From: Elusimicrobiota bacterium
GTDB taxonomy: Bacteria > CG03 > SLGR01 > PWQF01
Length of the DNA stretch: 64,000 nucleotides
Assembly: GCA_003557485.1 (NCBI GenBank)
Contig: PWOI01000179.1
Location: forward strand, 13,789 to 77,788
Direction: 5' to 3'
The translations under genes were made by a program, and so were the position numbers. Positions 3,001 to 16,754 of this stretch are shown here, in pieces (within the stretch, counting starts at the first letter, position 1; every line of letters starts with the position of its first letter). The notes beneath the pieces are model-generated. The model was not told the origin of the DNA. It made no database searches and saw only the letters and a list, made by a program, of their open reading frames with translations.

Positions 3001-5793
3001 GCTGGAGACCTGGAAATAGGGGAAGTTACTTCAGGGACTATAGAATGGCTTTGGCCAAGGGCCGTTGAGGAGAATTTTGTCAGGTACGAGCTTTGGTATT
3101 CTTCCGTAAGCGCTGAATCAGTCATTAACAGGTCAACACAAACGGCGCATTTTGAAACATTTGTAGATATCAATAAGACTGATGATATTACAGAAGAACT
3201 TCTTTCCCAAACACGGTACTGGGGGCAGGTTTGGGCTTATGACGGGCTGGGTTATGAAACCTATACATCAACGGTCTCACGAACTACCGGTTATCCTCCA
3301 AGTCTCTGGGTTTCGGCTCAGCCGGATCCAAAACGGGACGGCAGCGGCCACGTTGAATTTGAAGTTAAAATAAATGATCCTGATGGGTACGACAACTGGA
3401 TAAGTGTCAAGTTTTCTACAGATGGTGTTCTATTCCATAATGCCCACATAGGTCAAATAACAGATAAGGACGGAATACAGCGCACACCCTATAACATTGA
3501 GGAATACCAGATAAGCGGTATTCCTACAAAAGAAGGTGAGGACCTTATTACCAATACTCTGGTGATACGCTGGGATTCGAAAGACCAGCTTCCGGGTCAT
3601 ACATACGGATTGGATGGGCAGAATCACGAAAATGTCTATCTGCGTATAACTCCTTTTGATGGTTATTCAACAGGTGAAAGCACGCAGACCCAGGCCGTGC
3701 GAATAGATAATTCCAGGCCCGAACTTATAGTTTTTGATGATCCTGATCCTCTTATTAAAAGTTATAGTTGGTATAGTCACGATGATAGTGAATTAACGCT
3801 TTATTTTCATGGCGAATACGGCGAGCAAGGTGAATTTTTGTATGTGAGTACCGCATCTGTTGATTTTTCAAAAATTATGGTTTCAACAGGTACCGGACAG
3901 CCAGGGCAGTATATAGATCTTGAAGGTTCTGATGTTGAATTCTCGTTATGCGGAGATTATGTTCATATTACAATAACCGATACACACAGAAACTGGATTG
4001 CAAGACGTGATGGGGAGGGGAAGAGAGAAAATGTTTTTCTCAGGCTTTTATCCGGTGCTGTTGTTGACAGTTACGGTAATCCCAATATAGAGGAAGAACA
4101 GGTTAATTTTCACTGGATTGATAAAAGTGATCCAGTTTATCGATCTAATTACCTGACTTGGTATCCTGCCTGGTATTCGTATCCTTTTGATACTTTACCT
4201 CAGCTTACGACAGCTACCTATGAAATTATAGGAGGGGATATCAAGCTTAAACTGGAATTTGATGAGTATATGGATGTGCGCAGTTTTAGGGATACTGATT
4301 TAAGTTCAATAGTTATTTATGCGACATCACCATTTGACAGCAGGGATCTTTCTCATGATGAGAATATAACTGTTTTAACAGAGGAAAGTGATTCAAAGAT
4401 AATTGAATTTGACATACCTACGGGATTTCATCTGCTGATATGGGATTTTCAGGACGGAAATTTGTTTCTTTCCATTCCTGAAGAAAGCGACCTTAGGGAT
4501 TTATCAGGAAATCATTTGCTTGAGATTTCAACTGATGGTTCCCGCAGGATAGAAACACCATCGGAAGAAGATGCGCCGACTGTCAGTACGCAGACTGTTT
4601 CTCCGAAACCCGGAGAATATAATGTGTCAAAGACAACAAGTATTTATGTTGGATTCAGTACTTTTCTTGTTGATGACCCCCCGGAGAGAAAAAGTCCCAG
4701 GGAAAGTATAAATATCCGTCAGATTGAAGGGCCTACAGGCGAAAAATTAAGTAATGAAATATCGCCCGAAATAATAGTATACTGTAGAGAAGACAAACTT
4801 CTTGAATTTGTTCCTTCGAAACCCTTTCCGGGAAATTCCCTGATTGAAGTTACCATTGATGGGAATGAGATCTCTAATTTTTTTGGGGAACATATGGAGG
4901 AGGATTTTATATGGAGATTCAGGACGCAGTTGGATAGAGGGAAAGATAATCTTATAAGAAGCCCTTCGGGCATAGTTGAAATACTTGTTCCCGCTGGTCA
5001 GTTTGTATCAGACGGCGTAATAAATTTTACTGAAGGAATACCGTCCAAAGATCCCCATGATAAGGTATCAATAGATGCCTACAATGAGGCAGTAAGAAAA
5101 GAGAGATCTTGGGGTAACCCTTATAAATACCCTATAGAGGAGTTGAGCTTTGAGGTTCTTTTTTCAACTGATAGGAATAATCATTTTGACAGGGTTGCAT
5201 TCACGGAGAATGCGCAGATAACTATAAACTACTCAACGGTTATAATAAGCGGCTTAACGAAAACAGGAACCTGGGACTATATTCGTTCTGATTCAAAAGA
5301 TTACCGGCACAGTCCTCCTGTCGCTGAAAAGACTTTGCGAATCTATTACCTGGATGAGGACTCCCGGATGTGGCGCCCTCTTGCCTCGGAAGTAGATACG
5401 GACGAAAAAACCATTACGGCACCTATGAGGCATTTTAGTATTTATACTGTTATGGGAGGGAAGAATTACAGTGCCGAAGATGCCTATGCGTATCCGGTTC
5501 CCTATAAACCCTCGGAAATACCAGAAGATTTTAAAGGCGACCCGGCAAGATCCGGAATAAGGTTTACGCGCCTTCCCTCAGAGTGCGAAATAGAAATATA
5601 TACAATTTCAGGCCGGCTGGTAAATTCGTTTACCCATTCTGACGACAATCTGCTTCCGGGAGCGCAGGCAGGAAGCAGTTACTGGTACCCGGTGGAAAAC
5701 AGAAACGGACGGCCTTTAGAGAGCGGTGTTTATATATATGTGGTTGAAAGTTCCGGAAACAGGAAAAGCGGAAAGCTTATGATAATACGATGA
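1..5793 (+). CDS. Giant secreted cell-surface protein (at least 1930 aa): signal-peptide-like N-terminus, about 8 FG-GAP/VCBS beta-propeller repeats, multiple FN3/Ig-like domains, C-terminal type IX secretion (Por) sorting domain. True start is at or slightly upstream of the window edge.
   Basis: Uninterrupted ORF from position 1. Repeated D-x-N/T-G-N-G-x-x-D-hydrophobic motifs (DVTGNGLRDIVIS, DLNSNGSLDLIVLN, DINRNGRIDIV, DLNGNGYLDLIVAN, DINGNGLWDFVIG). C-terminal YPVPYKP...IEIYTISGRLV...SGVYIYVVES...GKLMIIR matches the T9SS C-terminal-domain pattern. A hydrophobic N-terminus precedes AESPP. Confidence 0.85.
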   Translation: MLGLLVFVCFNLYAESPPAPSELSLRVEGTSGSGIPENYAGIENPYPQFSWDSANQEAFQIQLGIGNPANPYNVIWDTEKVISSNSYCYYDGSEPLQSRERYHWRVRIWDNNDPEASPSDWALDSPSFEMNTFIFNRDFEPIGNQSPAFAFGDVTGNGLRDIVISAHTGTTGELIVYGNTGSGEYEAVWSTDSVVSESIALADLNSNGSLDLIVLNRQSAMDSLYIFKNKGDGTFEKIFQRTGDGSRAVAVGDINRNGRIDIVEAFYGVNRVWLNRKENFDFTEYTFGGNKNNNDIALADLNGNGYLDLIVANSGANEVYLNTGQLNSPFENTADWNDESLTPVTSNSLVVIDINGNGLWDFVIGGRIGDDPAFYRLYMNEGDGTFNGDGTTEPYDADSRALTSGDINNNGLLDLADGNLDRDLILINEGGSFDLLNEGFYSNEQTYRAVLADFTGNGKADLLRGFTDSKSKLLIQVPDDLYVPYEPPAPPTDNFAGYYSTSTGKLHLSWGHGESGFTPQSQLSYNIRIGTYPGGGSIISGALGSTDNSGSFWGNIGRSTYVNLQVDPQTFFWSVQAIDGVKNAGQWSVEHIINTPPSIGWAEEGVLLSTCARQWSFDKITDKEYLTFIYHEDRRGLIDIDFRVSDIEGNRVRLTGFSYSTAGADGTWYDVADDSPNLTLSGNQETSNWPDKNGEWFKATGDLETEHMFTFTAADMLRDEGIITGNNYNFKTSSFTVRFTVVDEHDAESEPVVSEYFSVDLKSPSVPGSLITTGTYDKDSITLEFSTPSADDNFKKYMIFYGETPGEAGHYYPGYGTIHADEALLSYDFAGATSTVFEGLNPDTTYYFRIWAYDKFGNYSRQPEEEITVRKTNHPPDIEIYSVYQATDGSGLVYISFTGFDNDVEYSSYSWSQCTFSLGGSTYEMKPSTGNILFSGEPLLFTKDVSTSVFVWDAGQQLAELTALSDNIQVNITLTVFDGRDTGSAGYSNFNVDNKPPYFEAGDLEIGEVTSGTIEWLWPRAVEENFVRYELWYSSVSAESVINRSTQTAHFETFVDINKTDDITEELLSQTRYWGQVWAYDGLGYETYTSTVSRTTGYPPSLWVSAQPDPKRDGSGHVEFEVKINDPDGYDNWISVKFSTDGVLFHNAHIGQITDKDGIQRTPYNIEEYQISGIPTKEGEDLITNTLVIRWDSKDQLPGHTYGLDGQNHENVYLRITPFDGYSTGESTQTQAVRIDNSRPELIVFDDPDPLIKSYSWYSHDDSELTLYFHGEYGEQGEFLYVSTASVDFSKIMVSTGTGQPGQYIDLEGSDVEFSLCGDYVHITITDTHRNWIARRDGEGKRENVFLRLLSGAVVDSYGNPNIEEEQVNFHWIDKSDPVYRSNYLTWYPAWYSYPFDTLPQLTTATYEIIGGDIKLKLEFDEYMDVRSFRDTDLSSIVIYATSPFDSRDLSHDENITVLTEESDSKIIEFDIPTGFHLLIWDFQDGNLFLSIPEESDLRDLSGNHLLEISTDGSRRIETPSEEDAPTVSTQTVSPKPGEYNVSKTTSIYVGFSTFLVDDPPERKSPRESINIRQIEGPTGEKLSNEISPEIIVYCREDKLLEFVPSKPFPGNSLIEVTIDGNEISNFFGEHMEEDFIWRFRTQLDRGKDNLIRSPSGIVEILVPAGQFVSDGVINFTEGIPSKDPHDKVSIDAYNEAVRKERSWGNPYKYPIEELSFEVLFSTDRNNHFDRVAFTENAQITINYSTVIISGLTKTGTWDYIRSDSKDYRHSPPVAEKTLRIYYLDEDSRMWRPLASEVDTDEKTITAPMRHFSIYTVMGGKNYSAEDAYAYPVPYKPSEIPEDFKGDPARSGIRFTRLPSECEIEIYTISGRLVNSFTHSDDNLLPGAQAGSSYWYPVENRNGRPLESGVYIYVVESSGNRKSGKLMIIR

Positions 5794-6857
5794 AAAGGAT
5801 TATTATAAAATCTATTTTTTCTTTTGCCGCAATTATAATAGTTGCAACTGCTCCCGTATTCTCTGTTTTCGGAGACGGGCCCGGAAGCACAGGATATGAT
5901 TTTCTCAATATACCCATAGGTGCGCGCCGCATAGGAATGGCCGCCGGGACAGCCGTAACCGGAGATAGTGACATATACTGGTGGAATCCTGCCGGGGTGG
6001 CATATGTGGAAAGGCCAGTTGTGAGCCTGATGCATAACCAGTTTATAGAAGGCATAAGCCAGCAGAGAGCAGGGTTCACGTTTCCGATGGAGGGCATGTC
6101 GGCGGGCGCTGTTAACCTTACAATGTTGTCGTATGGTGATATAGACGGGTATGACTGGGACGGCAGTCCGACCGGAGGGGTTTCTGCCGGAAGTTACAGT
6201 ATATCCTATACTCAGGCAAAAAGATTTACTTATGATACTGCTGCTGGCTTAAGTTTAAAAGTTATACATGAACAGCTTGATGATGAAAGCGCCTTTGCCG
6301 CAGCTCTTGACGGTGGAGCTTTGTTTGAACCATATGAAGGAGTTTCTGTGGGGCTGGGATGGAGGAACCTCGGCGTAAGCGGTAATTTTATTGATGAGGC
6401 GCCACAGCTTCCTTTATCCTTGTTTTTCGGAGCCGGGTTGAGACTTAATTATTTTACTCTTTTTGTAACAGATATTTCTTATCTGGACGGAGAACTTAAA
6501 TATGGTGCAGGGGTAGAGCTTAGTCTATGGGACTCTTTCTTTTTCCGTGGCGGTTGGGAAAGTTTTGCTGATGTTGATGAGACCTTCCGGCTTGGAGCGG
6601 GCTGGAGCTTCCGGGGAACCGGTATAAATTATGCGTTTGCTCCTTATGATAAGTTCGGCAGTACTCATAGGATGGATATAAGCTTTCAATTTGGTGAGCC
6701 GCCGCTTATAGAGAGAATATACCGCAGGGGGCAGAGTTTATATAGGCAGGAGAAATTTGAAGAAGCCTGGGTTGAATTCAATAAGGTAAAAGCTTTAAAC
6801 TCCAGGTATAAACGCATAAATTACTGGGTTGAAAGAGTGGAGGATGAAATAAAATAA
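5790..6857 (+). CDS. FadL/TodX/PorV-family outer-membrane beta-barrel protein (355 aa), start overlapping the stop of the T9SS cargo gene (ATGA)
   Basis: Signal peptide followed by the N-terminal motif IGARRIGMAAGTAVTGDSDIYWWNPAGVAY, characteristic of the FadL/OMPP1 hatch region (G-x-G-x-A-x-x-A-D-D-A...NPA). Alternating amphipathic beta-strand pattern with a terminal aromatic residue. Position immediately after a T9SS cargo suggests a PorV-like shuttle. Confidence 0.6.
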   Translation: MKRIIIKSIFSFAAIIIVATAPVFSVFGDGPGSTGYDFLNIPIGARRIGMAAGTAVTGDSDIYWWNPAGVAYVERPVVSLMHNQFIEGISQQRAGFTFPMEGMSAGAVNLTMLSYGDIDGYDWDGSPTGGVSAGSYSISYTQAKRFTYDTAAGLSLKVIHEQLDDESAFAAALDGGALFEPYEGVSVGLGWRNLGVSGNFIDEAPQLPLSLFFGAGLRLNYFTLFVTDISYLDGELKYGAGVELSLWDSFFFRGGWESFADVDETFRLGAGWSFRGTGINYAFAPYDKFGSTHRMDISFQFGEPPLIERIYRRGQSLYRQEKFEEAWVEFNKVKALNSRYKRINYWVERVEDEIK

Positions 6858-6875: not shown

Positions 6876-6904
6876 TTGACAAAATCGGATATGCGTGTTA
6901 TTAA
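6876..6904 (+). promoter_or_regulatory. sigma70-type promoter: TTGACA, 17-bp spacer, TATTAA(T)
   Basis: TTGACA at 6876-6881. Spacer aaatcggatatgcgtgt (17 nt). TATTAA at 6899-6904. Located in a 273-bp non-coding gap. Confidence 0.45.
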
Positions 6905-6944: not shown

Positions 6945-7035
6945 TAATATAGCCTGCTGATAAGGGCAACCGTCGGGTAACCGGCGGCTCGCAAAGTCAC
7001 AGCTCCGGGTTAACCGGAGGGCTGGTCTGCCGGTG
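6945..7035 (+). ncRNA. Candidate c-di-GMP-I (GEMM) riboswitch aptamer
   Basis: AAGGGCAACC, then hairpin CCGTCGG-GTAA-CCGGCGG (GNRA-type loop), then CTCGCAAAGTCACAG, then hairpin CTCCGG-GTTAA-CCGGAG. The flanks AGCC and GGCT can form P1. This matches the two-hairpin GEMM-I architecture with GGCAAACC and GACGCAAAGC-like junction sequences. Confidence 0.45.
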
Positions 7036-7085
7036 GGACGTTTAATTTAAACTGCAATATCAAAATTGCAGTAAAAGGAAATTAA

Positions 7086-7123
7086 CGGCCGGTTTGCCTT
7101 TATCAGGTAATCCGGCTGTTTTT
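7086..7123 (+). terminator. Intrinsic terminator-like hairpin plus U5 (riboswitch expression platform), ending 7 nt before the ATG at 7131
   Basis: CGGCCGG (7086-7092) pairs with CCGGCTG (7112-7118), including one G-U wobble. A 19-nt loop is followed by TTTTT (7119-7123). Confidence 0.4.
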
Positions 7124-7130
7124 ATTATAT

Positions 7131-8726
7131 ATGAACAAACTGTTTAAAAATTTAACGGTTTTTTGCCTGGCCCTTATTTACGCGGCCGCGCTGGGGTGGC
7201 TTTGCGTTGGACTGGTTTTTGCCGGTAGCGGCGGAATGCCTGGCGCTTTTATGTCCTGGGGAGCAGGCGCAAGGTCCCTGGGAATGGGAAAGGCTTTTGT
7301 TTCAATTGCTGATGATGCTACGGCTGCGTACTGGAACCCGGCAGGGCTTGCCGGTATTTCCCGTCCCGAACTGACGGCCCTGCATACAATACTCTGGGGC
7401 GGCACGGTTTATGATTTTATAAGTTATGTTCAGCCTACAGAATTCGGGGGGACCTTCGGATTCAGCGGGACCAGGTTGTTTTTGGGCGGTATCGAGGGAA
7501 GGGACTCAGATAACAGAAAAACTTATGACTTTGAAGACATACAGAGCGCTTACGGCATATCATACGGCCAGCGCGTGCTTGATAATCTTTCTGTAGGAGG
7601 CGGATTTAAACGAATGACGCATACTCTCGATGACCATACAAGCGGAAATTATACTATGGATATTGGAGTTCTCTATTCTCCGATTGACAGTCTCAGCCTC
7701 GGTATGAACCTGCAGAATCTTTTTGCAGTTAAGTTTGGAGATTCCACCGATACCAGCCTTCCTATGAACCTGCGCCTGGGCGCAAGCTATAGACTTTTAA
7801 GGGACAGGCTTCTTCTTGCTACTGATTTAGCCGCTTCGGTTTATGGATGGGATATGGGGCTTCCGGTTTTTATGGGAGCCGAGTACAAGGCTATGGATTT
7901 TCTTGATATAAGGTTTGGTGTCGACAGGGAAGAGATAAATATAGGCTTTGGTCTTACATATCTTGATTACGGGTTGGATTATTCATATGCTGCTCACGAT
8001 TTAGGCGGTTCCCACAGGGTTTCCGCAACTGTAAAACTAGGAAGCTCTGTCGAAGAAGCAAAGCGCCGTACTGCCCGGGAACGTGAAGCTGCCGGCGATG
8101 CAGCCTACAGGGCGGGGTTATTCAGAGAGGCTGCCGGATACTATGAGCGCGCTTATGCAATGGATCCTTCTGACAGGGACCTTGCCCGAAAGCTGAATCT
8201 TCTTACAAGAATAGCGCAGGTCATACCTTCTCGTGATGACGACACTCGCGAGGGTGAGCTTTTAAGGAGAGGGCTTAGGGAATATATAGAAGAAAATAAT
8301 ACCGACCTGCTTCTCCTTACACTGAACCATATGCTGGCCCTTGATCCCGGTGACCGTCAGGCGGAAAACCTGCTGCGACTTATCTCTTCAATAGAGGGTA
8401 TCAGCCAGCCAAGGATAAGGGTTGCTTCCGGAATGAGCCTTTCCGAATACAAGCTGCACAGATCTCTGCAACGGTTTTATGAGGGGGAATATGCCAGGGC
8501 GATAGAACTGGCGCAGGATGTTCTTGTTATTGAACCGCGCAACGCTGAAGCCTACAAAAGAATAGGTTCGGCTTTTTATGCAATAGGCAATGAAGAGAGA
8601 GCAGTAGAAAACTGGGAAGAATCGCTTAGAATTAATCCTGCGGATACCCAGCTGGAAAGGTTTCTTGAGAGAGTTCGTGGAGAAGAGGAGAGTCCTCCGG
8701 TAGAAAATATGTTAGATGAGTTTTAA
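7131..8726 (+). CDS. Outer-membrane FadL/PorV-like beta-barrel fused to a C-terminal TPR-repeat domain (531 aa)
   Basis: Signal peptide. GARSLGMGKAFVSIADDATAAYWNPAGLAG hatch motif, paralogous to the 5790 gene. Beta-barrel-like region to about residue 310, then about 200 aa of TPR-like helices (AYRAGLFREAAGYYERAYAMDP..., AYKRIGSAFYAIGNEERAVENWEESLRINP). Confidence 0.7.
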   Translation: MNKLFKNLTVFCLALIYAAALGWLCVGLVFAGSGGMPGAFMSWGAGARSLGMGKAFVSIADDATAAYWNPAGLAGISRPELTALHTILWGGTVYDFISYVQPTEFGGTFGFSGTRLFLGGIEGRDSDNRKTYDFEDIQSAYGISYGQRVLDNLSVGGGFKRMTHTLDDHTSGNYTMDIGVLYSPIDSLSLGMNLQNLFAVKFGDSTDTSLPMNLRLGASYRLLRDRLLLATDLAASVYGWDMGLPVFMGAEYKAMDFLDIRFGVDREEINIGFGLTYLDYGLDYSYAAHDLGGSHRVSATVKLGSSVEEAKRRTAREREAAGDAAYRAGLFREAAGYYERAYAMDPSDRDLARKLNLLTRIAQVIPSRDDDTREGELLRRGLREYIEENNTDLLLLTLNHMLALDPGDRQAENLLRLISSIEGISQPRIRVASGMSLSEYKLHRSLQRFYEGEYARAIELAQDVLVIEPRNAEAYKRIGSAFYAIGNEERAVENWEESLRINPADTQLERFLERVRGEEESPPVENMLDEF

Positions 8727-8738
8727 AGGAATCAAAGC

Positions 8739-10646
8739 ATGAATAAAATGATAAAAGTTCTGGTACTTCTTATGGCGCCCCTTTTTCTGGGCGCCTCTGA
8801 TTTTATGGACTATACAACTTTAATGAATCAGAAAATGGAAACCGAGAGGCGCCTTGAAGACCATCTGCAGGGAATTGTTTCCAGAATAGTCGGGGAAGGA
8901 CGTTCCACAGTTTTAGTCAGCGTAAATCTTTCCGACCTGAGCCGCAGCCGTGAAACTGTAGAAGAATGGCTTGAGCGGGGTGAGGATGCCGAAAGGCGGC
9001 TTCCGATGCGGGAAGAATACCTTCCCGGTATACCCCGCAGGGAAGATATGGCAGAAAGAGAAACGGAAGTCGCCGAGCGGGCCGGTGGAAAACGCCTCCA
9101 GGACGTAATAACTCTGCCTTCGGAATTTATAGAGAGTATGCGCATAAGCCTTATACTTGATTCCACTATATCCGAGACTGTAATCGCAACGGTGGAAAAC
9201 GTTATAACCGAGGTTATGGACCTGGATGCAGCCCGGGGCGATCGTTTAACTATACAGACAGTGGATTTTGCGGGTAGAACGGTAGATTTTATGGGTTTCC
9301 TATTTAATCCATATTTTTATGTTATATCCCTGGTACTTATAATTATAACCATACTCGCGCTTTTTCTTTTCGGGCCGCTGAAAAAATTTCTTTTCGCTAC
9401 TTTACAGACGATGAAAGACTTAAAAGGAATGAAGAGCGAAACCGAATACTCAGGAGGCGGGGGCGGGGGCGGGGGCGGATTTGGCATAACGCCGGACGGC
9501 GAAATTGAAATGGAAGAAGAGATAGAAGAAGATGAAGAATTGAAAGAGGGGGAAGAAGCAGATATAGAAGGCGAAGAAGAAGACGAGGAGTTTAAAAAGA
9601 TGACATATATACCGCTTAAGTTTCTGGAAAACAAGGATTTGAAGAAACTGGCTTACCTTTTAAGTTTTGAAAAACCGGAAGTAGGGGCTCTTCTTCTTAA
9701 ATATCTTTCGCCTCCGCGCGCTGCAAAAGTCCTCAGCTCAATTCCGGGAGAAGAAAGAACTATAGGAATAACAAGGGAGATTGTAAAATTTCAGAGAACT
9801 TCTAAGGAGGTCATGCAGAAAATAGATGAGTTTCTTAGCAGAAAAATAGATTACATTGCCGGCGGCGCCGAAAGTCTTGTGGAAATGATTGAAATGATGG
9901 ATGAAGAAAAAAGAGAGCAGCTCCTAAACCAGATTTCTTCTGAGGATCCTGAATTTGCCGAAAAAATTAAAAAGCGTATTTTCAGTTTTGAAAATATTGT
10001 AAATATGGATGACCCGTCCATACAGACACTAATACAGGAAATGGAGACTGCCGACCTTGGCGCAGCCCTTAAAAATGTATCTGAAGAAGTAAGAAACAAA
10101 TTTGTTTCCAATATGAGCGAAGGTGCGGCTGCTCTTTTAAAAGAGGAAATAGAATTTGGAAAGAAAATGACCGAGGAGCAGATAAAACAGAAACAAATGG
10201 AAGTTGTCGCAAAAATAAAAGATCTGGAGACGTCCGGCTCAATAGCACCCGTGACCGGCGCATCCAAAGAGGAATTATGGGTGGAAGAGCTGGGTGAGGG
10301 AGAAAAAGAAGGAGTTCTTGAGGAAATTATAAAGGCGGCCCAGGAAGCTTACGATAAGAAACAGGAACTTGAAGCTGCTGAGGCTGCCGGCCGTCAGGAT
10401 GATGAAGCTGCATTTGAAAGCTACCGTAAAGGTTTGGAACTCTATAAACACCAGGATTACGATAATGCAATAAAAGAGTTTAATAAATCCATTGCCTCCA
10501 ATCCATCCCTGTGGCAGAGCTATCAATATATAGGTTCCTGCTATCTTGCGCTCGATAATCAGGATGGAGCTAAAAAAGCCTACCGAAAAGCCCTTGAGCT
10601 TAATCCGTCAAACGAGCAGCTCAGGCAATGGTTGGAAAGTCATTGA
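8739..10646 (+). CDS. Membrane-anchored FliG-like protein (635 aa): signal/TM N-terminus, internal TM helix, poly-Gly and acidic linker, FliG middle/C-terminal-like domain, C-terminal TPR repeats
   Basis: Residues about 290-500 align with the FliG M/C pattern (KIKKRIFSFENIVNMDDPSIQTLIQEMETADLGAALKNVSEEVRNKFVSNMSEGAAALLKEEIEFGKKMTEEQIKQKQMEVVAKIKDLETSGSI versus FliG F-x-F-E-D-I...DDRAIQ...L-A-L-K-G-A-S-E-E...NMS-x-R-A-A-E-L-L-R-E-D...EEAQ-x-x-I...EEGEI). Hydrophobic segment FYVISLVLIIITILALFLFGPL. GGGGGGGGGFG and an E-rich run. TPRs at the end. Confidence 0.7.
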   Translation: MNKMIKVLVLLMAPLFLGASDFMDYTTLMNQKMETERRLEDHLQGIVSRIVGEGRSTVLVSVNLSDLSRSRETVEEWLERGEDAERRLPMREEYLPGIPRREDMAERETEVAERAGGKRLQDVITLPSEFIESMRISLILDSTISETVIATVENVITEVMDLDAARGDRLTIQTVDFAGRTVDFMGFLFNPYFYVISLVLIIITILALFLFGPLKKFLFATLQTMKDLKGMKSETEYSGGGGGGGGGFGITPDGEIEMEEEIEEDEELKEGEEADIEGEEEDEEFKKMTYIPLKFLENKDLKKLAYLLSFEKPEVGALLLKYLSPPRAAKVLSSIPGEERTIGITREIVKFQRTSKEVMQKIDEFLSRKIDYIAGGAESLVEMIEMMDEEKREQLLNQISSEDPEFAEKIKKRIFSFENIVNMDDPSIQTLIQEMETADLGAALKNVSEEVRNKFVSNMSEGAAALLKEEIEFGKKMTEEQIKQKQMEVVAKIKDLETSGSIAPVTGASKEELWVEELGEGEKEGVLEEIIKAAQEAYDKKQELEAAEAAGRQDDEAAFESYRKGLELYKHQDYDNAIKEFNKSIASNPSLWQSYQYIGSCYLALDNQDGAKKAYRKALELNPSNEQLRQWLESH

Positions 10647-10709
10647 AAGCGAAAATAGAATGCAGAACTTGAAAAAAAATAAATACTGTATTAGTACTTT
10701 ACAATTCTT

Positions 10710-13700
10710 ATGAATCCTGAAAACAACCAAAATCATAATAAAGGGCAGGGACTTCCCGGACCGCCTCCGCCTCCCTTTTCGGGAGATGCCGGGAAGAATC
10801 CTTCGCCCGGAATACCGGATATGCCGCCAATTCCCGGCTCTGCGCCACCCCCTCAGTCTATTGATGATGTTTTTACTCCTCAGGACCCCGGCATGGCAAA
10901 AGAAAAAAAACGTCCTTCTGAGAGAGAGAAACAGATTGAAGAAGAAATTTCCAGGCTGGACAGCCGTATGGAAAAAGAACGGCTTCAGCTGATGGAAAGG
11001 CTTAAGGAAAAAGAAAACGAAAACCTACGCCTGCAGGAACAGTTTCTTGAAAAAGAAAAAGAGGATGCCCGCCGTAAAAAGGAAGAGTTTGATAGATTGA
11101 AAGAAAAGCTTCATGAACAGTTTGTCGAAAAGGAAAATAAACTTAAAGAGGAAAGAGAACAGTGGCGCAGAGAGCTTGACGAAATAAGAAAAGAAAACAG
11201 AAGCAGACTTGCCCTTGAGCAGACGCAGAACCAGATCCGCATAGAGGCCCAGCAGCAGGCTCGCGAAGAATTTCAGCAACAGATGAAAGAAATGAAAAAG
11301 GAGCTTGAAAATGCCCGCCGCCGCGCTTACGAAGAGGCAATTAAACACAAGGAAGAAGAGAAAAATTCCATTAAGGTAGAGCAGGCCCTTAAAGAGGTCC
11401 TCCAATCAACTTCAATGAGCCAGAAAGCCGAGCAGGTTGAAAAGGAAAAAGAAAAACTCCGCGAAGAACTTTATCATCTTGAAAAAGAACTGGCATCCCA
11501 GAAAATTAATATGACTCGCAAGCTGCAGGAGAGCGAGAATTTAAGAGACAATATCAGGCTTGACTATCATAATAGGATCCGTGAAAGCCGGAGTCAGTAT
11601 GAAAGTAAAATTGCAGAGTTGAGAGAGACTGCTTCCGAGCTTGGCAATAAACTCTGGCAGGCCCGGAACAGCTATGAGAACAAAAAGGAGCTGTGGGAAG
11701 AAAGGGTCCGGGAAAATATTCAGGAAAAGGAAAATCTTACACTGCAGTACCAGAAACAGATAAGCGAACTCAGACTTGAATATGAACAGAAAATTACCGA
11801 TGCGTTAAGCGCAAAAGAATCTGCAGAAAACAGGTATTGGGGAATTAAGGAAAAATTTGATGAGCAAACGGTTGAGCTTAATTCGCGTATTAAAGAACTT
11901 GAAAAAGAGAAAGACCTTATAGAAAAAGAATACGGAATGAAAGTCGCCTCTCTTGAAAGCGCCCTTAATGAAGAGAAAGCCGAACTTGCTGCCCAGAAAA
12001 AGATAAGCGAGGAAAGACTTAACCGAATTAACGATGAACTTCACGCAAAGGAGAACAGGTATAAGGAAAAAATAAGCGATATAGAAATAAATTATTCCGA
12101 AAAAATCCAGAATATAAAAGAAAAATATAAATCCGGCCTTTCTGAAAATGAAAGAGAAATAGAAAAGCTTAAGGCGCTTCTGAAGGAAAGCCGTGAGAAA
12201 TTATCACAGAATTCCGGAGGATCTCACCGGGATTTTGAAAACAGCAAAAAAGAGGTAGAAGAAGCCCGCCGTCTAATGGAGAAGGAAAAGAACAGGTTCA
12301 ATTTCCGGCTCAGAGAAATAGAGAATGATTATGAAAAGCGTCTCTCTGAACTTAAAGTTAAAAACAGCCGTCTTGAATCAAGGATATCAGCCCTTGAAGA
12401 AAAAAGAGAGACCTCTATAGATAAATATAACGACAAGATAGAAGAACTCAACGGAAAAATAAATGAACTTAAAATTGAAAACGCAGCTTTACAGGGAGAT
12501 TTACTGAAAACCGAGAGGCAGATTGAGAGTTCCGACAGAGCTTTAGAGGATATGGCCCGCAAAAATGCCGAAATTCACCACCGCCTTGTCAGCAGCCGAA
12601 AAGAAAATGATGAGGACATTTACCGGTTGAGAGAAGAAATAAATTCTCTGCGCAGGGAAAAAACCGAAGCTCTTCTAAGGATTGAGAACGAGCATTCCAG
12701 GGAATCGGAACTCTATGAGAACCAGCTTCTTCAGGCGCGCAGGGCAACAGAGGATCTCAGGCGCGAAAAAGACCGGCAGATAGATTCAATTAAACAGCAG
12801 TTTGATAATTACAGAAAGAACTTTCAGTGGCTTAAACAGGAGTGGCAGCAGCAAAAAGAAGAACTCCGGGAAAATTTCAGCGTGAAGGAAAAGGGATATG
12901 AAAATGAGATAAAACAGCTTGAATCGGCTCTGAGCGAAGTGCAGAAACTGAAAACACATTCTGAAAGTGAACTTAACGCTGAAATTGAAGCTGTCAGGAA
13001 GGAAAAACAATCCCTGCAGGAAAAATTTGAATCAAAAATTCAGCAGATGAGGGATGAATTTGCAGCTAAAAAGACGGATCTTTATGAAAAACTGAATGAA
13101 AAACAAAGGAATATAAGCGAATTGGAAGCCCGTCTGGATACAGAAAGAGTTGACTATACAGCCCGGATCCAGCAAGCGGAAAAAGAGAAAACTGCTGTTT
13201 TGCGGGAAAAAGAGATCCTTGATGTAGAAACTGAAAAACTGAAAAAAGAGACTCATAGCCTCCAGCTCAGGTACGAAAGAGAAGCAGAAGAAAACCGTAA
13301 ACTGAGAGAGGCTCTTCATCATGGTGAAAAGAAGTACAGAAACGAAATAGGAAAGCTTAAGGAATACTACGAGAAAAACCTTGAATCCCTTCGCAGAAGG
13401 CAGGATGGTATTGCAAATGTAGAGTATGACAGCCTTGATACTGAGAATAGAGAATTGAAGCATCAGCTTAAGTCTGCTGAATCTGAGATAAGCCGGCTTA
13501 AGTCACAGCTTGTAGAAAAAGAAGAGGCTCAGGAAAAAATACAGGCTGAAATAGATAAATATACAGCAGAAATTGATGACCTTACACAGGAATTGAAGCA
13601 AAGACAGTCTGTTATTGAACAACTTGAACGGAAAGTTTCTGATATTGATGATTCGCAGGCTGTGCAGGAGGATATAAGCCAGCTTAAAAAAGAAAACAGC

Positions 13701-14618
13701 GAATTAACCGGACATTTGGAAGAATCATTGCGGGAAAGGGATATTCTTAAAGAGAAAAATGCCAGCCTTTTGTCGGAAAATGAAGCTAAAAAGCAGCAAA
13801 TAGAACAGCTTTCCCTTAAACTTGAGGAAAAAGAAAGCCAAATAGGCCAGCTTCAAGGTAAAATTCCCGGAGAAGATATTATATCCGGTAAGAATGAGGA
13901 AATAGCAGAACTTGAAGATGAAATTAAAGAGCTAAGGTCCGCCCTTTCGGATTCTGAATCTAAAATAAAGCAGCTTTCAGAGGCTGCATCCCGTGCGGAT
14001 TCTCTTATGGACAGCAAAAAAGAGATAGAAGAACTTTCCGCTTCACTTGCGGAAAAACATTTGAAAGAAATTGAAGAGAAAGAAAGAATTATAGAAGAAT
14101 TAAGAAAAGAACTTGAGGAGTCCCTTGAAGAACTTGAAGAGAGGGAGCAGCAGCCTGTGACCGATGGGCTTAAATCTGAAAGGCTGCAGGTTCTTGCCGG
14201 GGAGAATGCTGAACTCAAGGAAAAAATAAGAGAATTGGAGTCTCAGCTTGAGATAGGAATGGAGCAGCTTCGCAGTGAGAAGATGGTTCCGGAATATGAT
14301 ACAGAAAAAACAGACGAAAAAATAAAGCAAATCAATGAAAAATGGAGGAAAAAATGGGCCGGCCGCGAACAGAAAGTAAAAGATTTCATATCACAGGCAA
14401 AAGCCAGGCACAGCCAGCTTAAAGACAAGCTTCAGGTTGCTCTTGAAGACCAGAAAATTCTTTCACAGCTTGCAGAAAAGGAAAAACAACAGAAACAGAA
14501 GCTTGCTTCAGAGCAGGCCGAACTTATAAAAGAGCTTCAGGAAAGCAACAGGTCTTTTGTCAGTAAAATACTTGCCAAACTGAAAAAAGGCGGGCCTAAA
14601 GGCGTACTCATCCTTTAA
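10710..14618 (+). CDS. Giant coiled-coil protein (1302 aa): Pro-rich N-terminus followed by about 1200 aa of E/K/R/Q-rich heptad-like sequence
   Basis: Continuous ORF with a strong purine-rich coding strand. N-terminal PGPPPPPFSGD...PPIPGSAPPP. The remainder is low-complexity, charged and predicted alpha-helical. No enzymatic motif recognised. Confidence 0.7.
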   Translation: MNPENNQNHNKGQGLPGPPPPPFSGDAGKNPSPGIPDMPPIPGSAPPPQSIDDVFTPQDPGMAKEKKRPSEREKQIEEEISRLDSRMEKERLQLMERLKEKENENLRLQEQFLEKEKEDARRKKEEFDRLKEKLHEQFVEKENKLKEEREQWRRELDEIRKENRSRLALEQTQNQIRIEAQQQAREEFQQQMKEMKKELENARRRAYEEAIKHKEEEKNSIKVEQALKEVLQSTSMSQKAEQVEKEKEKLREELYHLEKELASQKINMTRKLQESENLRDNIRLDYHNRIRESRSQYESKIAELRETASELGNKLWQARNSYENKKELWEERVRENIQEKENLTLQYQKQISELRLEYEQKITDALSAKESAENRYWGIKEKFDEQTVELNSRIKELEKEKDLIEKEYGMKVASLESALNEEKAELAAQKKISEERLNRINDELHAKENRYKEKISDIEINYSEKIQNIKEKYKSGLSENEREIEKLKALLKESREKLSQNSGGSHRDFENSKKEVEEARRLMEKEKNRFNFRLREIENDYEKRLSELKVKNSRLESRISALEEKRETSIDKYNDKIEELNGKINELKIENAALQGDLLKTERQIESSDRALEDMARKNAEIHHRLVSSRKENDEDIYRLREEINSLRREKTEALLRIENEHSRESELYENQLLQARRATEDLRREKDRQIDSIKQQFDNYRKNFQWLKQEWQQQKEELRENFSVKEKGYENEIKQLESALSEVQKLKTHSESELNAEIEAVRKEKQSLQEKFESKIQQMRDEFAAKKTDLYEKLNEKQRNISELEARLDTERVDYTARIQQAEKEKTAVLREKEILDVETEKLKKETHSLQLRYEREAEENRKLREALHHGEKKYRNEIGKLKEYYEKNLESLRRRQDGIANVEYDSLDTENRELKHQLKSAESEISRLKSQLVEKEEAQEKIQAEIDKYTAEIDDLTQELKQRQSVIEQLERKVSDIDDSQAVQEDISQLKKENSELTGHLEESLRERDILKEKNASLLSENEAKKQQIEQLSLKLEEKESQIGQLQGKIPGEDIISGKNEEIAELEDEIKELRSALSDSESKIKQLSEAASRADSLMDSKKEIEELSASLAEKHLKEIEEKERIIEELRKELEESLEELEEREQQPVTDGLKSERLQVLAGENAELKEKIRELESQLEIGMEQLRSEKMVPEYDTEKTDEKIKQINEKWRKKWAGREQKVKDFISQAKARHSQLKDKLQVALEDQKILSQLAEKEKQQKQKLASEQAELIKELQESNRSFVSKILAKLKKGGPKGVLIL

Positions 14619-14622
14619 AAAA

Positions 14623-14850
14623 ATGATAAATGTGACCAAATTAAACGGCGATGGTATAATCCTTAACGCCGAACTTATAGAAACGGTTGAATCGCGCCCC
14701 GACACTCTTATAACCCTTACTACTGGAAATAAAATTATGGTAAAGGAAAAAGTTGAGGATATAATAAAAAGGGTTGAGGATTATAAAAGGCAGGTAAATA
14801 TGCTTACCCGAGAGAAGCTTAGTGCGTTGCTCAGGGAAGAAGAGGAATAA
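14623..14850 (+). CDS. flbD: FlbD-family flagellar-type protein (75 aa)
   Basis: MINVTKLNGDGIILNAELIETVESRPDTLITLTTGNKIMVKEKVEDIIKRVEDYKRQV matches the FlbD pattern (I-x-L-T-R-L-N-G-x-x-F-x-L-N-A-D-L-I-E-T-I-E-x-T-P-D-T-V-I-T-L-x-N-G-K-K-Y-x-V-K-E). Conserved flbD-motA-motB order. Confidence 0.7.
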   Translation: MINVTKLNGDGIILNAELIETVESRPDTLITLTTGNKIMVKEKVEDIIKRVEDYKRQVNMLTREKLSALLREEEE

Positions 14851-14853
14851 ATT

Positions 14854-15711
14854 ATGGACCTGACGACAGTAATAGGGCTTTCCGGAGGCATTATAATAGT
14901 TTTTACAGCGGTTGCTCTCCGTGGTGGTATGGCAGGCCTGCAGGGGTTTCTGGATATGCCTTCCGCTATGATTACTTACGGGGGAACCTTTGCCGCTCTT
15001 ATGGTGAACTATCCGATAGATAAAGTTGTAAAAGCCTTTAAAGTCGTCAAAAAAGTATTTACCGAACAGCAGGACGACCCTAACGATTATATTGAAAAAT
15101 TCCGCCAGCTGATTATCAAAGCCTCAAAACAGGGAGTTCTTTCCCTTGAGGAAGATATAAAAAAAATGGACAACGAATTTTTAAGAAATGGAGTTAAAAT
15201 GGTCATGGACGGCCAGAGCCAGGAGCATATAGAAGAAGAAATGGAGACTGAACTGGCATTTACCAGGGAAAGGCATAAAATAGGCCAGGAAATTTTTGTG
15301 ACACTTGGCACTTACTCCCCTGCGTTCGGTATGATAGGGACTATTATGGGTCTTATCCTGATGCTAGCCGACCTTCAGGATACTGCCCAGATAGCTGCCG
15401 GTATGGCGGTAGCTCTATTGACAACCTTTTACGGCGCCCTTGGCGCTTATCTTATTTTTCTTCCCATCGCCGGCAAGCTGAAAAGGCGTTCGGAAGAGGA
15501 GCTTTTTCTTAAAAGTGTCATAACCAGAGGCGTCATGTCCCTTCATGCGGGAGAGGTTCCTTCAATAGCGGTAGCTAAACTGCGCGCGTATATACCGAGA
15601 TCCTCTTTTATGGAGCCTTCCGGCACAAAAAAAGGGAAGGCTGACGAAAAAGAAGAAGGAAACAAGAAGAAAAAAACAAAGGTAAAATACCGTAAAAAGA
15701 AGAAGAAATGA
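14854..15711 (+). CDS. motA: MotA/TolQ/ExbB-family proton-channel stator subunit (MotA-like, 285 aa) with Lys-rich C-terminal tail
   Basis: MDLTTVIGLSGGIIIVFTAVAL...ITYGGTFAALMV N-terminal TM pair. C-terminal TM pair with the LGTYSPAFGMIGTIMGLI...LLTTFYGALGAYLIFLPIAGKL signature. Tail KKGKADEKEEGNKKKKTKVKYRKKKKK. Confidence 0.85.
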   Translation: MDLTTVIGLSGGIIIVFTAVALRGGMAGLQGFLDMPSAMITYGGTFAALMVNYPIDKVVKAFKVVKKVFTEQQDDPNDYIEKFRQLIIKASKQGVLSLEEDIKKMDNEFLRNGVKMVMDGQSQEHIEEEMETELAFTRERHKIGQEIFVTLGTYSPAFGMIGTIMGLILMLADLQDTAQIAAGMAVALLTTFYGALGAYLIFLPIAGKLKRRSEEELFLKSVITRGVMSLHAGEVPSIAVAKLRAYIPRSSFMEPSGTKKGKADEKEEGNKKKKTKVKYRKKKKK

Positions 15712-16562
15712 GCAAAATTGCCGCATTTAAGAGGAGTCTTCCTAAAGACGAGGGGGATATTGAGGTCGGTAAAGGCTCCCCCCCGTGGATGACTACTTAT
15801 GGAGACCTTGTTACCCAGCTCCTGATTTTTTTTGTTATGATGTTTGCGCTTGCCGCCACGCTCAATGAGCTGCAGTTGATAAGCATAAAACGCAGAATTG
15901 AGAACTACGCATACCAGAACCAGCTTGGCCATCTTATAATGCTCGATATTAACCCCAAAGGATTGGTAATAACCCTTAGCGAAAAAATGATGTTTGATTC
16001 CGGCCAGGCCGAGATATATGAGGATGCAAAAGCCATTCTCTCCGCAATAGCAGGTGAAATAATAGATGTACCCAATCCTGTCAGAATTGAAGGTCATACG
16101 GATAGCGTACCCATCAGTACAGATAGGTTTCCTTCCAACTGGGAACTGTCAACAGCCCGGGCGACAAATGTAGCAAGATATCTTGTAGAGAACCTGGAAT
16201 TTCCGCCTGACCGGATAGCTGCCGGGGGGTACAGTAAATACCATCCTGCGGTAGGAACGGAAATTGAAGATGAAATATTCAACTACAAGTTAAAAGTAAG
16301 AGAGGTTCCACAGCATTATTCCCTTGAGCTCAGGCGCGCATCCACTCCGGAGGAGGAAGACCTGGTTATGTTGAGAATAAGAGAAGAACAGCTTGAGATA
16401 CAACGGGAAATGCAGGGAATAATTATGGAGCATATACGTATTGCAAACCTTGATGCGGACAGAAGAGCCCGGAACAGGAGGGTTGACATAATAGTGGAGA
16501 GGATAGGCACTACTGTTGAAAGAAGAACGGATATCGCGGCGCCTGTTGCCGTTTCTCATTAG
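15708..16562 (+). CDS. motB: MotB-like stator subunit with OmpA-type peptidoglycan-binding domain (284 aa)
   Basis: PPWMTTYGDLVTQLLIFFVMMFALAA plug/TM motif. IEGHTDSVPI...FPSNWELSTARATNVARYLV...NRRVDIIV OmpA-like domain. Start overlaps the motA stop (ATGA). Confidence 0.85.
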   Translation: MSKIAAFKRSLPKDEGDIEVGKGSPPWMTTYGDLVTQLLIFFVMMFALAATLNELQLISIKRRIENYAYQNQLGHLIMLDINPKGLVITLSEKMMFDSGQAEIYEDAKAILSAIAGEIIDVPNPVRIEGHTDSVPISTDRFPSNWELSTARATNVARYLVENLEFPPDRIAAGGYSKYHPAVGTEIEDEIFNYKLKVREVPQHYSLELRRASTPEEEDLVMLRIREEQLEIQREMQGIIMEHIRIANLDADRRARNRRVDIIVERIGTTVERRTDIAAPVAVSH

Positions 16563-16606: not shown

Positions 16607-16660
16607 ATGACGGTTAGATATATAAGTATTACAGAAATGAACTGGTGGTGGCCCATGTAG
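16607..16660 (+). CDS. Candidate trp-operon leader peptide MTVRYISITEMNWWWPM (17 aa) with three consecutive Trp codons. An internal ATG at 16637 would give MNWWWPM.
   Basis: In-frame ATG...TGG TGG TGG CCC ATG TAG, located 95 nt upstream of trpE and directly followed by alternative hairpins and two terminators. Confidence 0.5.
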   Translation: MTVRYISITEMNWWWPM

Positions 16661-16692
16661 GGAGCGCTGCCGTGTCTTTATTTTTTAATCAG

Positions 16693-16720
16693 CGGCGCGC
16701 CCTCTGGCGGCCGTTTTTTT
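16693..16720 (+). terminator. Attenuator terminator 1: GC-rich 8-bp stem (one bulge), CTCT loop, U7
   Basis: cggc(g)cgcc-ctct-ggcggccg followed by ttttttt (16714-16720). Confidence 0.5.
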
Positions 16721-16726
16721 ATTTAG

Positions 16727-16754
16727 GGCCGCCTTTAAGGCGGCTCTTTTTTTT
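16727..16754 (+). terminator. Attenuator terminator 2: GGCCGCC-tttaa-GGCGGCT stem-loop plus U8, ending at the trpE ATG. The right arm contains the trpE SD-like AAGG.
   Basis: ggccgcc tttaa ggcggct followed by c tttttttt (16747-16754). ATG at 16755. Confidence 0.55.

Follow-up and report, generated by a model that had tools for sequence, protein, structure and literature searches.

Gliding of Myxococcus by the Agl-Glt system relies on an ion-driven motor of the 5:2 type (AglRQS), a long cytoplasmic coiled coil (AglZ) and outer-membrane parts, and it results in surface motility. In the known type IX secretion system (T9SS), a motor that the proton-motive force (PMF) drives works together with a translocon of the outer membrane and the shuttle protein PorV (PMC8754138). 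For the Elusimicrobiota, a 2022 preprint reports that most free-living members carry motAB, flbD and fliG without the flagellar structural genes, in a role described as enigmatic or unclear, and that a few genomes of the phylum encode complete flagella. In this work, we analysed a 64-kb stretch of DNA from an Elusimicrobiota bacterium (contig PWOI01000179.1; the whole stretch is called the window below), in which a cassette of six genes on the + strand, spanning 7131-16562, combines motor genes of this kind with genes for an outer-membrane barrel and a giant coiled-coil protein. We find that the second gene of the cassette is a natural fusion of FliF and FliG domains, and we conclude that the cassette very probably encodes a functional, non-flagellar rotor-stator module.

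The locus had been singled out by a prediction made from the sequence alone (the original prediction), which proposed that a MotAB-type motor had been repurposed for an envelope-spanning function. The central part of that proposal, a flagellar-type MotAB/FliG module in a non-flagellar and envelope-spanning cassette, withstood every test applied to it, and the proposal as a whole is partly supported; the FliF-FliG fusion had been missed, and the topology of the FliG part had been misread. The presence of motAB, flbD and fliG in the phylum has already been reported; the architecture of the cassette appears to be undescribed. In the literature searched, we found no description of a natural FliF-FliG fusion, of its PorV-type partner with tetratricopeptide repeats (TPRs), of the coiled coil, of the riboswitch linkage or of the association with giant adhesins. 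The six open reading frames (ORFs) are separated by 12, 63, 4 and 3 nt and joined by one ATGA overlap, and they reproduce exactly the coordinates and spacings given in the original prediction. The single promoter and riboswitch leader proposed there is likewise recovered, the promoter-like elements being read from the sequence and the riboswitch being matched by RF01051 (cyclic di-GMP, c-di-GMP). The leader and the cassette are laid out as follows (TM, transmembrane).

6876..6904, + strand: predicted promoter-like TTGACA and TATTAA with a 17-nt spacer, about 50 nt upstream of the aptamer (sequence reading)
6955..7034, + strand: c-di-GMP-I (GEMM-I) riboswitch aptamer (RF01051)
7084..7127, + strand: expression platform, an intrinsic terminator hairpin with a U-run abutting the start codon of gene 1 (local fold)
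7131..8726, + strand: gene 1, PorV/PorQ-family (FadL-like, UPF0164) barrel with C-terminal TPRs (NF033709; Pfam)
8739..10646, + strand: gene 2, FliF-FliG fusion and rotor candidate, 635 aa (profiles, fold search, AlphaFold model)
10710..14618, + strand: gene 3, cytoplasmic coiled-coil protein, 1302 aa (composition; weak SMC/Rad50 coiled-coil matches)
14623..14850, + strand: gene 4, FlbD (PF06289; E = 6.9e-26, 90 bits), small soluble flagellar-motor accessory protein
14854..15711, + strand: gene 5, MotA of the flagellar clade, subunit of the stator pentamer (NCBIfam; solved MotA 6ysf)
15708..16562, + strand: gene 6, MotB, composed of plug, TM helix holding the conserved Asp33, and OmpA-like peptidoglycan-binding domain (Pfam; NCBIfam)

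The cassette resembles the flagellar motor in having the M and C domains of FliG, MotA and MotB of the flagellar clade with the conserved Asp and Pro residues, and FlbD encoded directly before motAB, as well as in its predicted repression by c-di-GMP. It differs from that motor in that FliF and FliG form one polypeptide, without the ring-building motifs (RBMs) RBM1 and RBM2, without FliG_N and without the C-terminal tail of FliF. Additionally, the rotor protein carries extra C-terminal TPRs, its equivalents of FliG R281 and R297 are not basic, and it is accompanied by a PorV-type barrel and a giant coiled coil, with no linked export gate, FliM/N, rod, hook or filament. Profile scans of the window detected no gene for FliM/N, the export gate (FlhA/B, FliPQR), rod, hook or flagellin, and none of these occurs in the Pfam-annotated flanks of seven related loci, which extends the corresponding absence noted in the original prediction for the adjacent genes. 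With FliG_N and the RBM1 and RBM2 of FliF missing, and without any linked genes for export or axial parts, we do not regard the cassette as a flagellum. As for FlbD, which the 2022 preprint treats as a transcriptional activator, gene 4 of this cassette is a small PF06289 protein.

The likeness to Agl-Glt is functional only: AglRQS is TolQR/ExbBD-like, whereas the MotA of the cassette is of the flagellar type; Agl-Glt is not known to have a FliG-like rotor, and no Glt homologues were identified here. With T9SS and gliding in Bacteroidota (GldL/M, PorV, SprB), the cassette has in common a PMF-type motor encoded together with PorV/PorQ-family barrels and giant proteins bearing T9SS-type C-terminal domains (CTDs), and also the proposed logic of a motor that acts on giant adhesins. 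However, the motor is of the MotAB/FliG and not of the GldL/M type, the equivalog cutoffs for PorV and PorQ are not reached, and the phylum is a different one. Neither a SprA/Sov-like translocon, PorK/N, PorU or PorZ nor a PorL/M (GldL/M)-like gene was found in the window or in the annotated flanks. On the genes of the window and of the annotated flanks the cassette does not appear to be a T9SS, of which only the family-level PorV/PorQ model and the CTD cargo are matched.

The domains of gene 2 (all on the + strand) are arranged along its 635 residues as follows (pLDDT, predicted local distance difference test).

Residues 4-22: signal peptide or first TM helix
Residues ~30-175 (nt 8826-9263): periplasmic domain, FliF RBM3/S-ring-like, holding a collar-like insert
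Residues 193-211: TM helix (strong)
Residues 232-290: disordered Gly/acidic linker
Residues 303-371 (nt 9645-9851): FliG_M
Residues 398-502 (nt 9930-10244): FliG_C with the torque helix
Residues 560-630 (nt 10416-10628): C-terminal TPRs, about three, with pLDDT near 90

The FliG part is readily recognised. Gene 2 scores 108 bits with FliG_C and 53 bits with FliG_M in Pfam, against 32.8 bits for MgtE_N; it aligns with the solved FliG_MC at E = 1.8e-57, and it matches the fliG model TIGR00207 at 147 bits in an alignment that begins only at model position 112. The resemblance is thus to FliG, and the MgtE N-domain, the alternative identity named in the original prediction, was rejected on these scores. 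Both the Gly-Gly hinge and the torque helix of FliG are present. FliG_N gives no match in the window protein at E <= 0.01, residues 232-290 being the disordered linker.

For the FliF part, the family alignment shows an N-terminal hydrophobic segment followed by about 170 conserved residues before the TM helix at 193-211, and this conserved region closes, just before the helix, with an invariant LPGIP motif and an ARGD...F motif. Scanned by itself, the N-terminal domain is matched by Pfam YscJ_FliF_C in 11 of the 13 members of the family, with 24.5 bits (cutoff 23.8) for the window protein. In the AlphaFold model, this domain has a confident alpha-beta-[insert]-beta-alpha-beta core, the insert (residues 67-127) being of low confidence. 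A fold search with the domain returned, as its third-best structural match, 8z4d, an engineered FliF-FliG fusion, and further matches were the ring-building-motif proteins SpoIIIAH, PrgK, SpoIIIAG and EscJ; the profile of the domain found only a faint match to SpoIIIAG (E = 8.8) among PDB sequences, so that the fold search was needed for the identification. The 190-residue periplasmic part therefore holds a single RBM, of the RBM3/S-ring type with an insert, and neither RBM1 nor RBM2. Based on this evidence, gene 2 is a natural FliF(RBM3-TM)-FliG(M+C)-TPR fusion. The statement in the original prediction that no fliF is present was wrong in spirit, since residues ~30-175 are a FliF RBM3/S-ring domain. 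That prediction had correctly seen the FliG M and C domains, the TM helix and the TPRs, and had concluded that this is not a cytoplasmic FliG; we predict instead that the FliG domains are cytoplasmic, as in a normal motor, because they follow the TM helix and a Lys-rich segment (positive-inside rule).

Covalent joining of FliF and FliG would make FliG_N and its contact with the FliF tail dispensable, and an export gate could not be accommodated canonically in a protein without RBM1 and RBM2. Laboratory fusions of FliF and FliG are known to assemble into rings (PMC10941966, PMC11481574). The engineered Vibrio/Salmonella fusions (for example PDB 8z4d) have the same covalent linkage of MS-ring to C-ring as gene 2; they differ in being composed of full-length FliF and full-length FliG (945 aa), whereas gene 2 is natural and shorter. 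When 1.84 billion cluster representatives were searched by profile, about 40 clusters at 50% identity showed the full gene 2 architecture. A larger sister family has FliF(RBM3)-TM-FliG_MC in 450-580 aa without the C-terminal TPRs (P0098, P0105, P0120, P0080, P0086 and others). One such TPR-less fusion is encoded at locus L050 (2391-3812), between motA and a 633-aa gene for an outer-membrane-protein-like product with a signal peptide and the C-terminal end ...RINYSF; no aptamer signature is present there. One full-length family member (P0197, RLE71917.1, P0051 cluster) comes from a 4.9-kb contig of a metagenome-assembled genome (MAG) labelled by NCBI as 'Thermoprotei archaeon'. As the protein belongs to a bacterial motor and is associated with the outer membrane, the label is almost certainly due to wrong binning.

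The cassette is conserved as a unit. The closest proteins (56-88% identity) are annotated only in Elusimicrobiota MAGs. A search of genome contigs with the single protein gave only one close relative (88% identity, in an Elusimicrobia MAG), and a second homologue search, for which a two-clade profile was used, gave the same 19 proteins again, its prefilter being probably swamped by candidates that share TPRs. A metagenome scan added 42 further loci, many of them with full-length relatives at 31-36% identity; the most divergent, L040, is at 25% identity and belongs to an Elusimicrobiota MAG. The large clade at about 33% identity is labelled only 'bacterium' or subsurface metagenome, and all names given at the phylum level are Elusimicrobiota. 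Locus synteny was compared by BLAST. Gene 1 lies immediately 5' of gene 2 at every locus with upstream DNA (about 38), and a coiled-coil ORF followed by FlbD, MotA and MotB comes after gene 2 wherever the downstream DNA suffices, with the exception of three distant loci without the coiled-coil gene (in which FlbD follows gene 2 directly) and one locus with inverted stator genes. The position of FlbD directly before motA is conserved. At L029, the apparent absence of stator genes is explained by a coiled-coil ORF that runs off the contig end. Given that the flanking genes differ completely between loci, the conserved thing is the six-gene unit itself, and its recurrence in about 40 independent loci places the arrangement far beyond chance. 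A decaying flagellar remnant was also considered and rejected, as the ORFs are intact and key residues invariant over about 40 loci, down to 25% identity. At L040, a match to group II intron domains V/VI (33-106, + strand; RF00029, 48.7 bits) was seen about 3 kb upstream of the cassette.

The stator genes are of the flagellar kind, and all three components listed in the original prediction (FlbD, MotA, and MotB with an OmpA domain) are supported by profiles. MotA scores 200-233 bits with the flagellar MotP/PomA/MotA models of NCBIfam, against 22.5 bits for TolQ and 20.5 bits for ExbB, and can be aligned over its whole length with the solved structures of MotA and PomA (E = 1e-44 to 1e-49; 1.6e-49 for MotA 6ysf). 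MotB matches MotB_plug (42 bits) and OmpA (56 bits) in Pfam and the MotS/MotD/MotB models at 106-129 bits. On the question of whether the pair groups with the flagellar or with the TolQR/ExbBD clades, the stator thus scores with MotA/PomA/MotP, and a TolQR/ExbBD identity was rejected (about 22 bits against 200-233). Zorya (ZorAB) was rejected as well: the PADLOC model of ZorA gives 15.7 bits, the ZorB match is merely generic MotB similarity, and no other defence models match. Residue D33 of MotB, which we take to correspond to D32 of E. coli, is invariant in the 16 family members compared (16/16), and P156 and P204 of MotA, presumably equivalent to P173 and P222, are invariant in 19/19. Judged by these residues, the stator looks functional. 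The torque helix of FliG was mapped through an alignment with T. maritima and the E. coli FliG numbering (n = 36 members). The acidic pair of this helix is retained in gene 2, with E469 in 36/36 and E470 in 32/36, and position 445 (the K264 equivalent) is basic in 34/36. Stator-rotor charge pairs are given in PMC7564593 as MotA R90-FliG D289 and MotA E98-FliG R281. In the cassette, the torque interface is conserved within the family, yet its charge pattern is not the canonical one.

Gene 1 had been described in the original prediction as a FadL/PorV-like barrel fused to TPRs, which agrees with its scores: 115.1 bits with NF033709 (PorV/PorQ family, cutoff 90), 24.9 bits with UPF0164 and 39 bits with TPR_2 (Pfam), and a match to solved PorV (6h3i_F) at E = 9e-4. 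The barrel occupies residues ~40-302; for the TPR domain at the C-terminus, about 220 aa long, a periplasmic location is predicted. The equivalog models PorV, PorQ and PorV2 stay far under their cutoffs (36 vs 250 bits for PorV, 57 vs 220 bits for PorQ). Gene 3, the 1302-aa coiled-coil protein of the original prediction (10710-14618), keeps that description on the basis of its composition and of weak SMC/Rad50 coiled-coil matches, and like FlbD it has no hydrophobic segment. Across loci, the ORF between gene 2 and FlbD is rich in E, K, R and L, and its length ranges from 682 to >1500 aa through variation in tandem repeats of about 46 aa (EEKDRIEGELKKRIEEFELERAKREEEANILRQGLERELKEIREKLEEEK..., seen at L029 from 12375 to the contig end). 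In 16 orthologues the termini are conserved, with a poly-proline motif at the N-terminus and a short basic/hydrophobic tail at the C-terminus. Variable repeats between fixed termini would be the expected appearance of a molecular ruler or tether.

The leader of the window cassette matches the full-length RF01051 model at 43.8 bits (gathering score 35). An aptamer of clan CL00126 lies just 5' of gene 1 in 28 of the 30 loci scanned (44-71 bits at orthologous loci), and none was found in the other two even at E <= 1; at L053 the sequence signature of the aptamer is present. In the clade of the window the aptamer is canonical c-di-GMP-I, and in most of the divergent clade it is of the c-di-GMP-I-GGC variant (RF03167, about 70 bits). 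The loci with variants are the following.

GGC variant (RF03167): L003, L010-L012, L016, L017, L020-L025, L027, L029, L032, L035, L040, L045
UAU variant (RF03168): L036, 5171-5249

The aptamers of these loci thus resemble the known classes (RF01051, RF03167, RF03168) in their full-length match in a 5' leader and in a terminator-type platform, and differ from the known c-di-GMP-I class in that most loci carry the GGC variant and one the UAU variant. Each match to the rare families RF03167 and RF03168 in the scanned loci lies directly 5' of the cassette, which may therefore be a main regulon of the two variants, and so a clue to their ligand; the literature searched makes no mention of a link between them and this cassette.

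As for the direction of control, a local fold of the window leader places the terminator hairpin at 7084-7120, with its U-run abutting the start codon of gene 1. The 5' half of this terminator (UUGCCUUUAUCAG) is complementary to the 5' core of the aptamer (CUGAUAAGGGCAA, ~6958-6970), and the minimum-energy fold of the full leader is the anti-terminator (z = -5.9). Exact complements of the same kind, 10-12 nt long, occur in other loci of the window clade and in L016, which has a GGC-type aptamer; about half of the GGC-clade loci show an exact complement, at least 9 nt long, between the 5' strand of the terminator and a 3' segment of the aptamer. In both pairing designs the ligand-bound aptamer would free the terminator, and an OFF switch is therefore predicted, the operon being repressed at high c-di-GMP as flagellar operons are. 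This resembles the riboswitch that turns off the flagellar operon of Clostridioides difficile. The window also encodes a GAF-GGDEF diguanylate cyclase (56461-57558, + strand) and a Crp/cNMP-binding regulator (27879-28571, + strand), from which it follows that the organism has c-di-GMP signalling.

Upstream of the leader, two genes extend the theme of the outer membrane and the cell surface.

1..5793, + strand: large surface protein, at least 1930 aa long, its ORF being open at the edge of the window (Pfam; TIGR04183)
5790..6857, + strand: second PorV/PorQ-family outer-membrane barrel, 355 aa (NF033709, 111.9 bits vs cutoff 90)

Both had been named in the original prediction (as a giant T9SS adhesin and a PorV-like barrel), and the two assignments hold, with 25.6 bits for TIGR04183 (cutoff 23) and 112 bits for NF033709. 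The large protein contains Ig_Rha78A_N, FG-GAP, fn3 and Big_5 domains (Pfam) and ends in a T9SS type-A C-terminal sorting domain (~5566-5784, the last ~75 residues). The barrel is paralogous to gene 1 (27% identity, E = 3e-23); it is conserved in L001 and L006, as a neighbour restricted to the window clade, and homologues of the large protein lie 5' of the cassette in the same two loci. Taking all 22 loci with upstream DNA, a giant ORF is found directly upstream in 15. This holds for 11/11 loci of the GGC clade, in which the ORF runs off the locus edge, is visible over >2,400-2,800 aa where about 8 kb of upstream DNA are available, and ends ~100-350 nt before the aptamer. In the window clade it holds for four of six loci (the window, L001, L006 and L007), where the called proteins have 7,265-17,658 aa. 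The TIGR04183 model is above its 23-bit cutoff in 9 of the 13 C-termini tested (window 25.6, L001 28.0, L007 23.8, six GGC-clade giants 25.8-29.8). At L009, the opposite strand carries, downstream of motB and not upstream of the cassette, a PorV2-like barrel and a gene similar to the C-terminal part of the large window protein (12003-14770, - strand); the association with the cassette survives rearrangement at this locus.

The domain identities, the topology signals, the gene order, the conserved key residues and the riboswitch are results of the analysis; they can be assembled into a model of operation, in which ring formation, rotation, the couplings, the cargo and the OFF control are inferences. 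From homology with the flagellar motor, gene 2 would oligomerise in the inner membrane through RBM3, giving a periplasmic S-ring-like ring and a cytoplasmic FliG_MC ring. Stators of the MotA5B2 type, assisted by FlbD and anchored to the peptidoglycan through the OmpA domain of MotB, would conduct ions through Asp33, push on the torque helix of FliG_C and so turn the ring or push on it. The anatomy of the remaining parts suggests two couplings: outwards, the ring may contact the PorV-type barrel of gene 1 through the periplasmic TPR domain of the latter, and inwards, the C-terminal TPRs of gene 2 may hold the coiled coil of gene 3 as a scaffold, tether or ruler, docking perhaps on its poly-proline or C-terminal motif. 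The gene neighbourhood and the regulation suggest adhesin movement, gliding or secretion as a possible function. PorV-type barrels bind the CTDs of T9SS cargo and the cassette usually has giant proteins with such domains next to it, so that the most economical output would be a PMF-driven movement or handling of giant adhesins. The predicted folds of the leader would add to this that high c-di-GMP switches the operon off, as with flagella.

Our preferred reading is, accordingly, a rod-less and PMF-driven rotor-stator module that moves or handles giant surface adhesins, in a form of gliding or surface motility, and we hold it with confidence and doubt in about equal parts. Several observations count against it. 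Among the weakest points of the model are the lack of a rod-like transmission element leading from the inner-membrane ring across the peptidoglycan to the outer-membrane barrel, and the altered stator-rotor charge pattern: at the R281 equivalent, gene 2 invariably has Gly or Ala, at the R297 equivalent it has Thr, with a basic residue three positions earlier, and the MotA position equivalent to R90 varies across the family. Moreover, the adjacent giant gene is absent at seven of the 22 loci (L005, L009, L030, L034, L036, L040 and L042) and, where present, it lies before the riboswitch and thus outside its control, which makes the link with the giants strong but not obligatory. A 14-strand PorV-type barrel is by itself not a translocon. 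Finally, an OFF switch responding to c-di-GMP fits motility, but it rests on predicted folds, and we know of no established ligand for the GGC and UAU variant aptamers that front most of the loci.

The same parts admit other explanations. The cassette might power the secretion or attachment of the giant CTD proteins, as an analogue of PorL/M (GldL/M) with the barrels acting as shuttle or anchor. The PorV/PorQ family cutoff is exceeded by gene 1 as well as by the ORF at 5790-6857, T9SS type-A CTDs are present on the adjacent giants, the window has no PorL/M-like gene of its own, and the T9SS described above likewise pairs a PMF motor with a translocon and the PorV shuttle. We nevertheless consider this unlikely in view of the lack of SprA/Sov-like, PorK/N, PorU and PorZ genes in the window and the annotated flanks, of the unreached PorV and PorQ equivalog cutoffs and of the seven loci without a giant gene; in addition, high c-di-GMP usually favours adhesin export and attachment, whereas the leader is predicted to switch the operon off under this condition. 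Features such as the loss of the canonical FliG R281-MotA E98 charge pair and the absence of a FliM/N switch would sit well with a non-rotary envelope scaffold or mechanosensor, in which the FliF-FliG ring, the stators and the coiled coil position or tether structures, or sense load or contact, without sustained rotation. The repeat-driven length of gene 3 is as expected of a ruler or tether, and the three distant loci without this gene suggest a modular scaffold. The invariance of D33, P156 and P204, together with the conservation of the torque-helix acidic pair and of FlbD, would be unexpected if ion flow and torque were irrelevant, and the stator genes are kept wherever the downstream DNA suffices; a non-rotary role is in our judgement improbable.

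Still more remote is the idea of an ordinary flagellum encoded elsewhere, to which gene 2 would contribute a FliG paralogue and FlbD-MotAB a spare set of stator parts. It draws on the flagellar origin of every motor-type domain and on the few Elusimicrobiota genomes that do encode complete flagella. It has to contend with a gene 2 that lacks FliG_N (the FliF-docking domain) and the RBM1 and RBM2 of FliF, with a cassette found always with the PorV-type barrel and coiled coil and never with fli, flg or flh genes over about 40 loci and the annotated flanks, and with the report that these genes reside in genomes without flagellar structural genes (2022 preprint). We regard it as very improbable.

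Returning to the module that moves or handles adhesins, we propose tentatively, with somewhat more doubt than belief, that it represents an unrecognised class of envelope machine: a flagellum-derived rotary motor without export or axial parts, with a single FliF-FliG rotor and a PorV-type coupler to giant CTD adhesins, which would provide a third route, independent of the others, to motility of the gliding type or to adhesin handling, and would also form the chief regulon of the orphan variants GGC and UAU. If this is true, the flagellar torque core (FliF S-ring, FliG and MotAB) is a portable module, independent of secretion apparatus, rod and filament, which evolution has wired to a different output. 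Its minimal, one-polypeptide rotor is attractive for structural studies of the stator-rotor interaction. The model also offers a testable explanation for the enigmatic motAB, flbD and fliG genes of a largely uncultivated phylum with magnetotactic members, which must move. Orphan GGC and UAU riboswitches become tied to a defined gene set, the usual route to a ligand, and T9SS-type CTDs and PorV-like parts are extended to a new mechanical context.

The remainder of the window consists of housekeeping genes (a trp operon, murein and DNA-metabolism genes, the Crp-like regulator and the GAF-GGDEF cyclase), and profile scans detected no flagellar, gliding or T9SS-core gene among them. The trp operon adjoins the 3' end of the cassette, at the following boundary.

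16691..16754, + strand: two terminators, each a hairpin plus U-run, forming the 3' boundary of the operon (terminator scan match at 16725-16747; sequence and fold)

The original prediction had placed strong terminators at 16693-16754; the hairpins and U-runs are indeed there, and we would only correct their role, since they probably double as an attenuator of trpE. A tiny ORF at 16637-16660 (+ strand; ATG AAC TGG TGG TGG CCC ATG TAG, that is, MNWWWPM*) has three consecutive Trp codons and sits between the stop codon of motB and the start of trpE (16755), with the hairpins and U-runs (~16691-16720 and 16725-16754) following it. No Rfam match to this region was found at the gathering score. In this Elusimicrobiota genome, the ORF and the hairpins together look like a trp attenuator of the classical kind, with a leader peptide.

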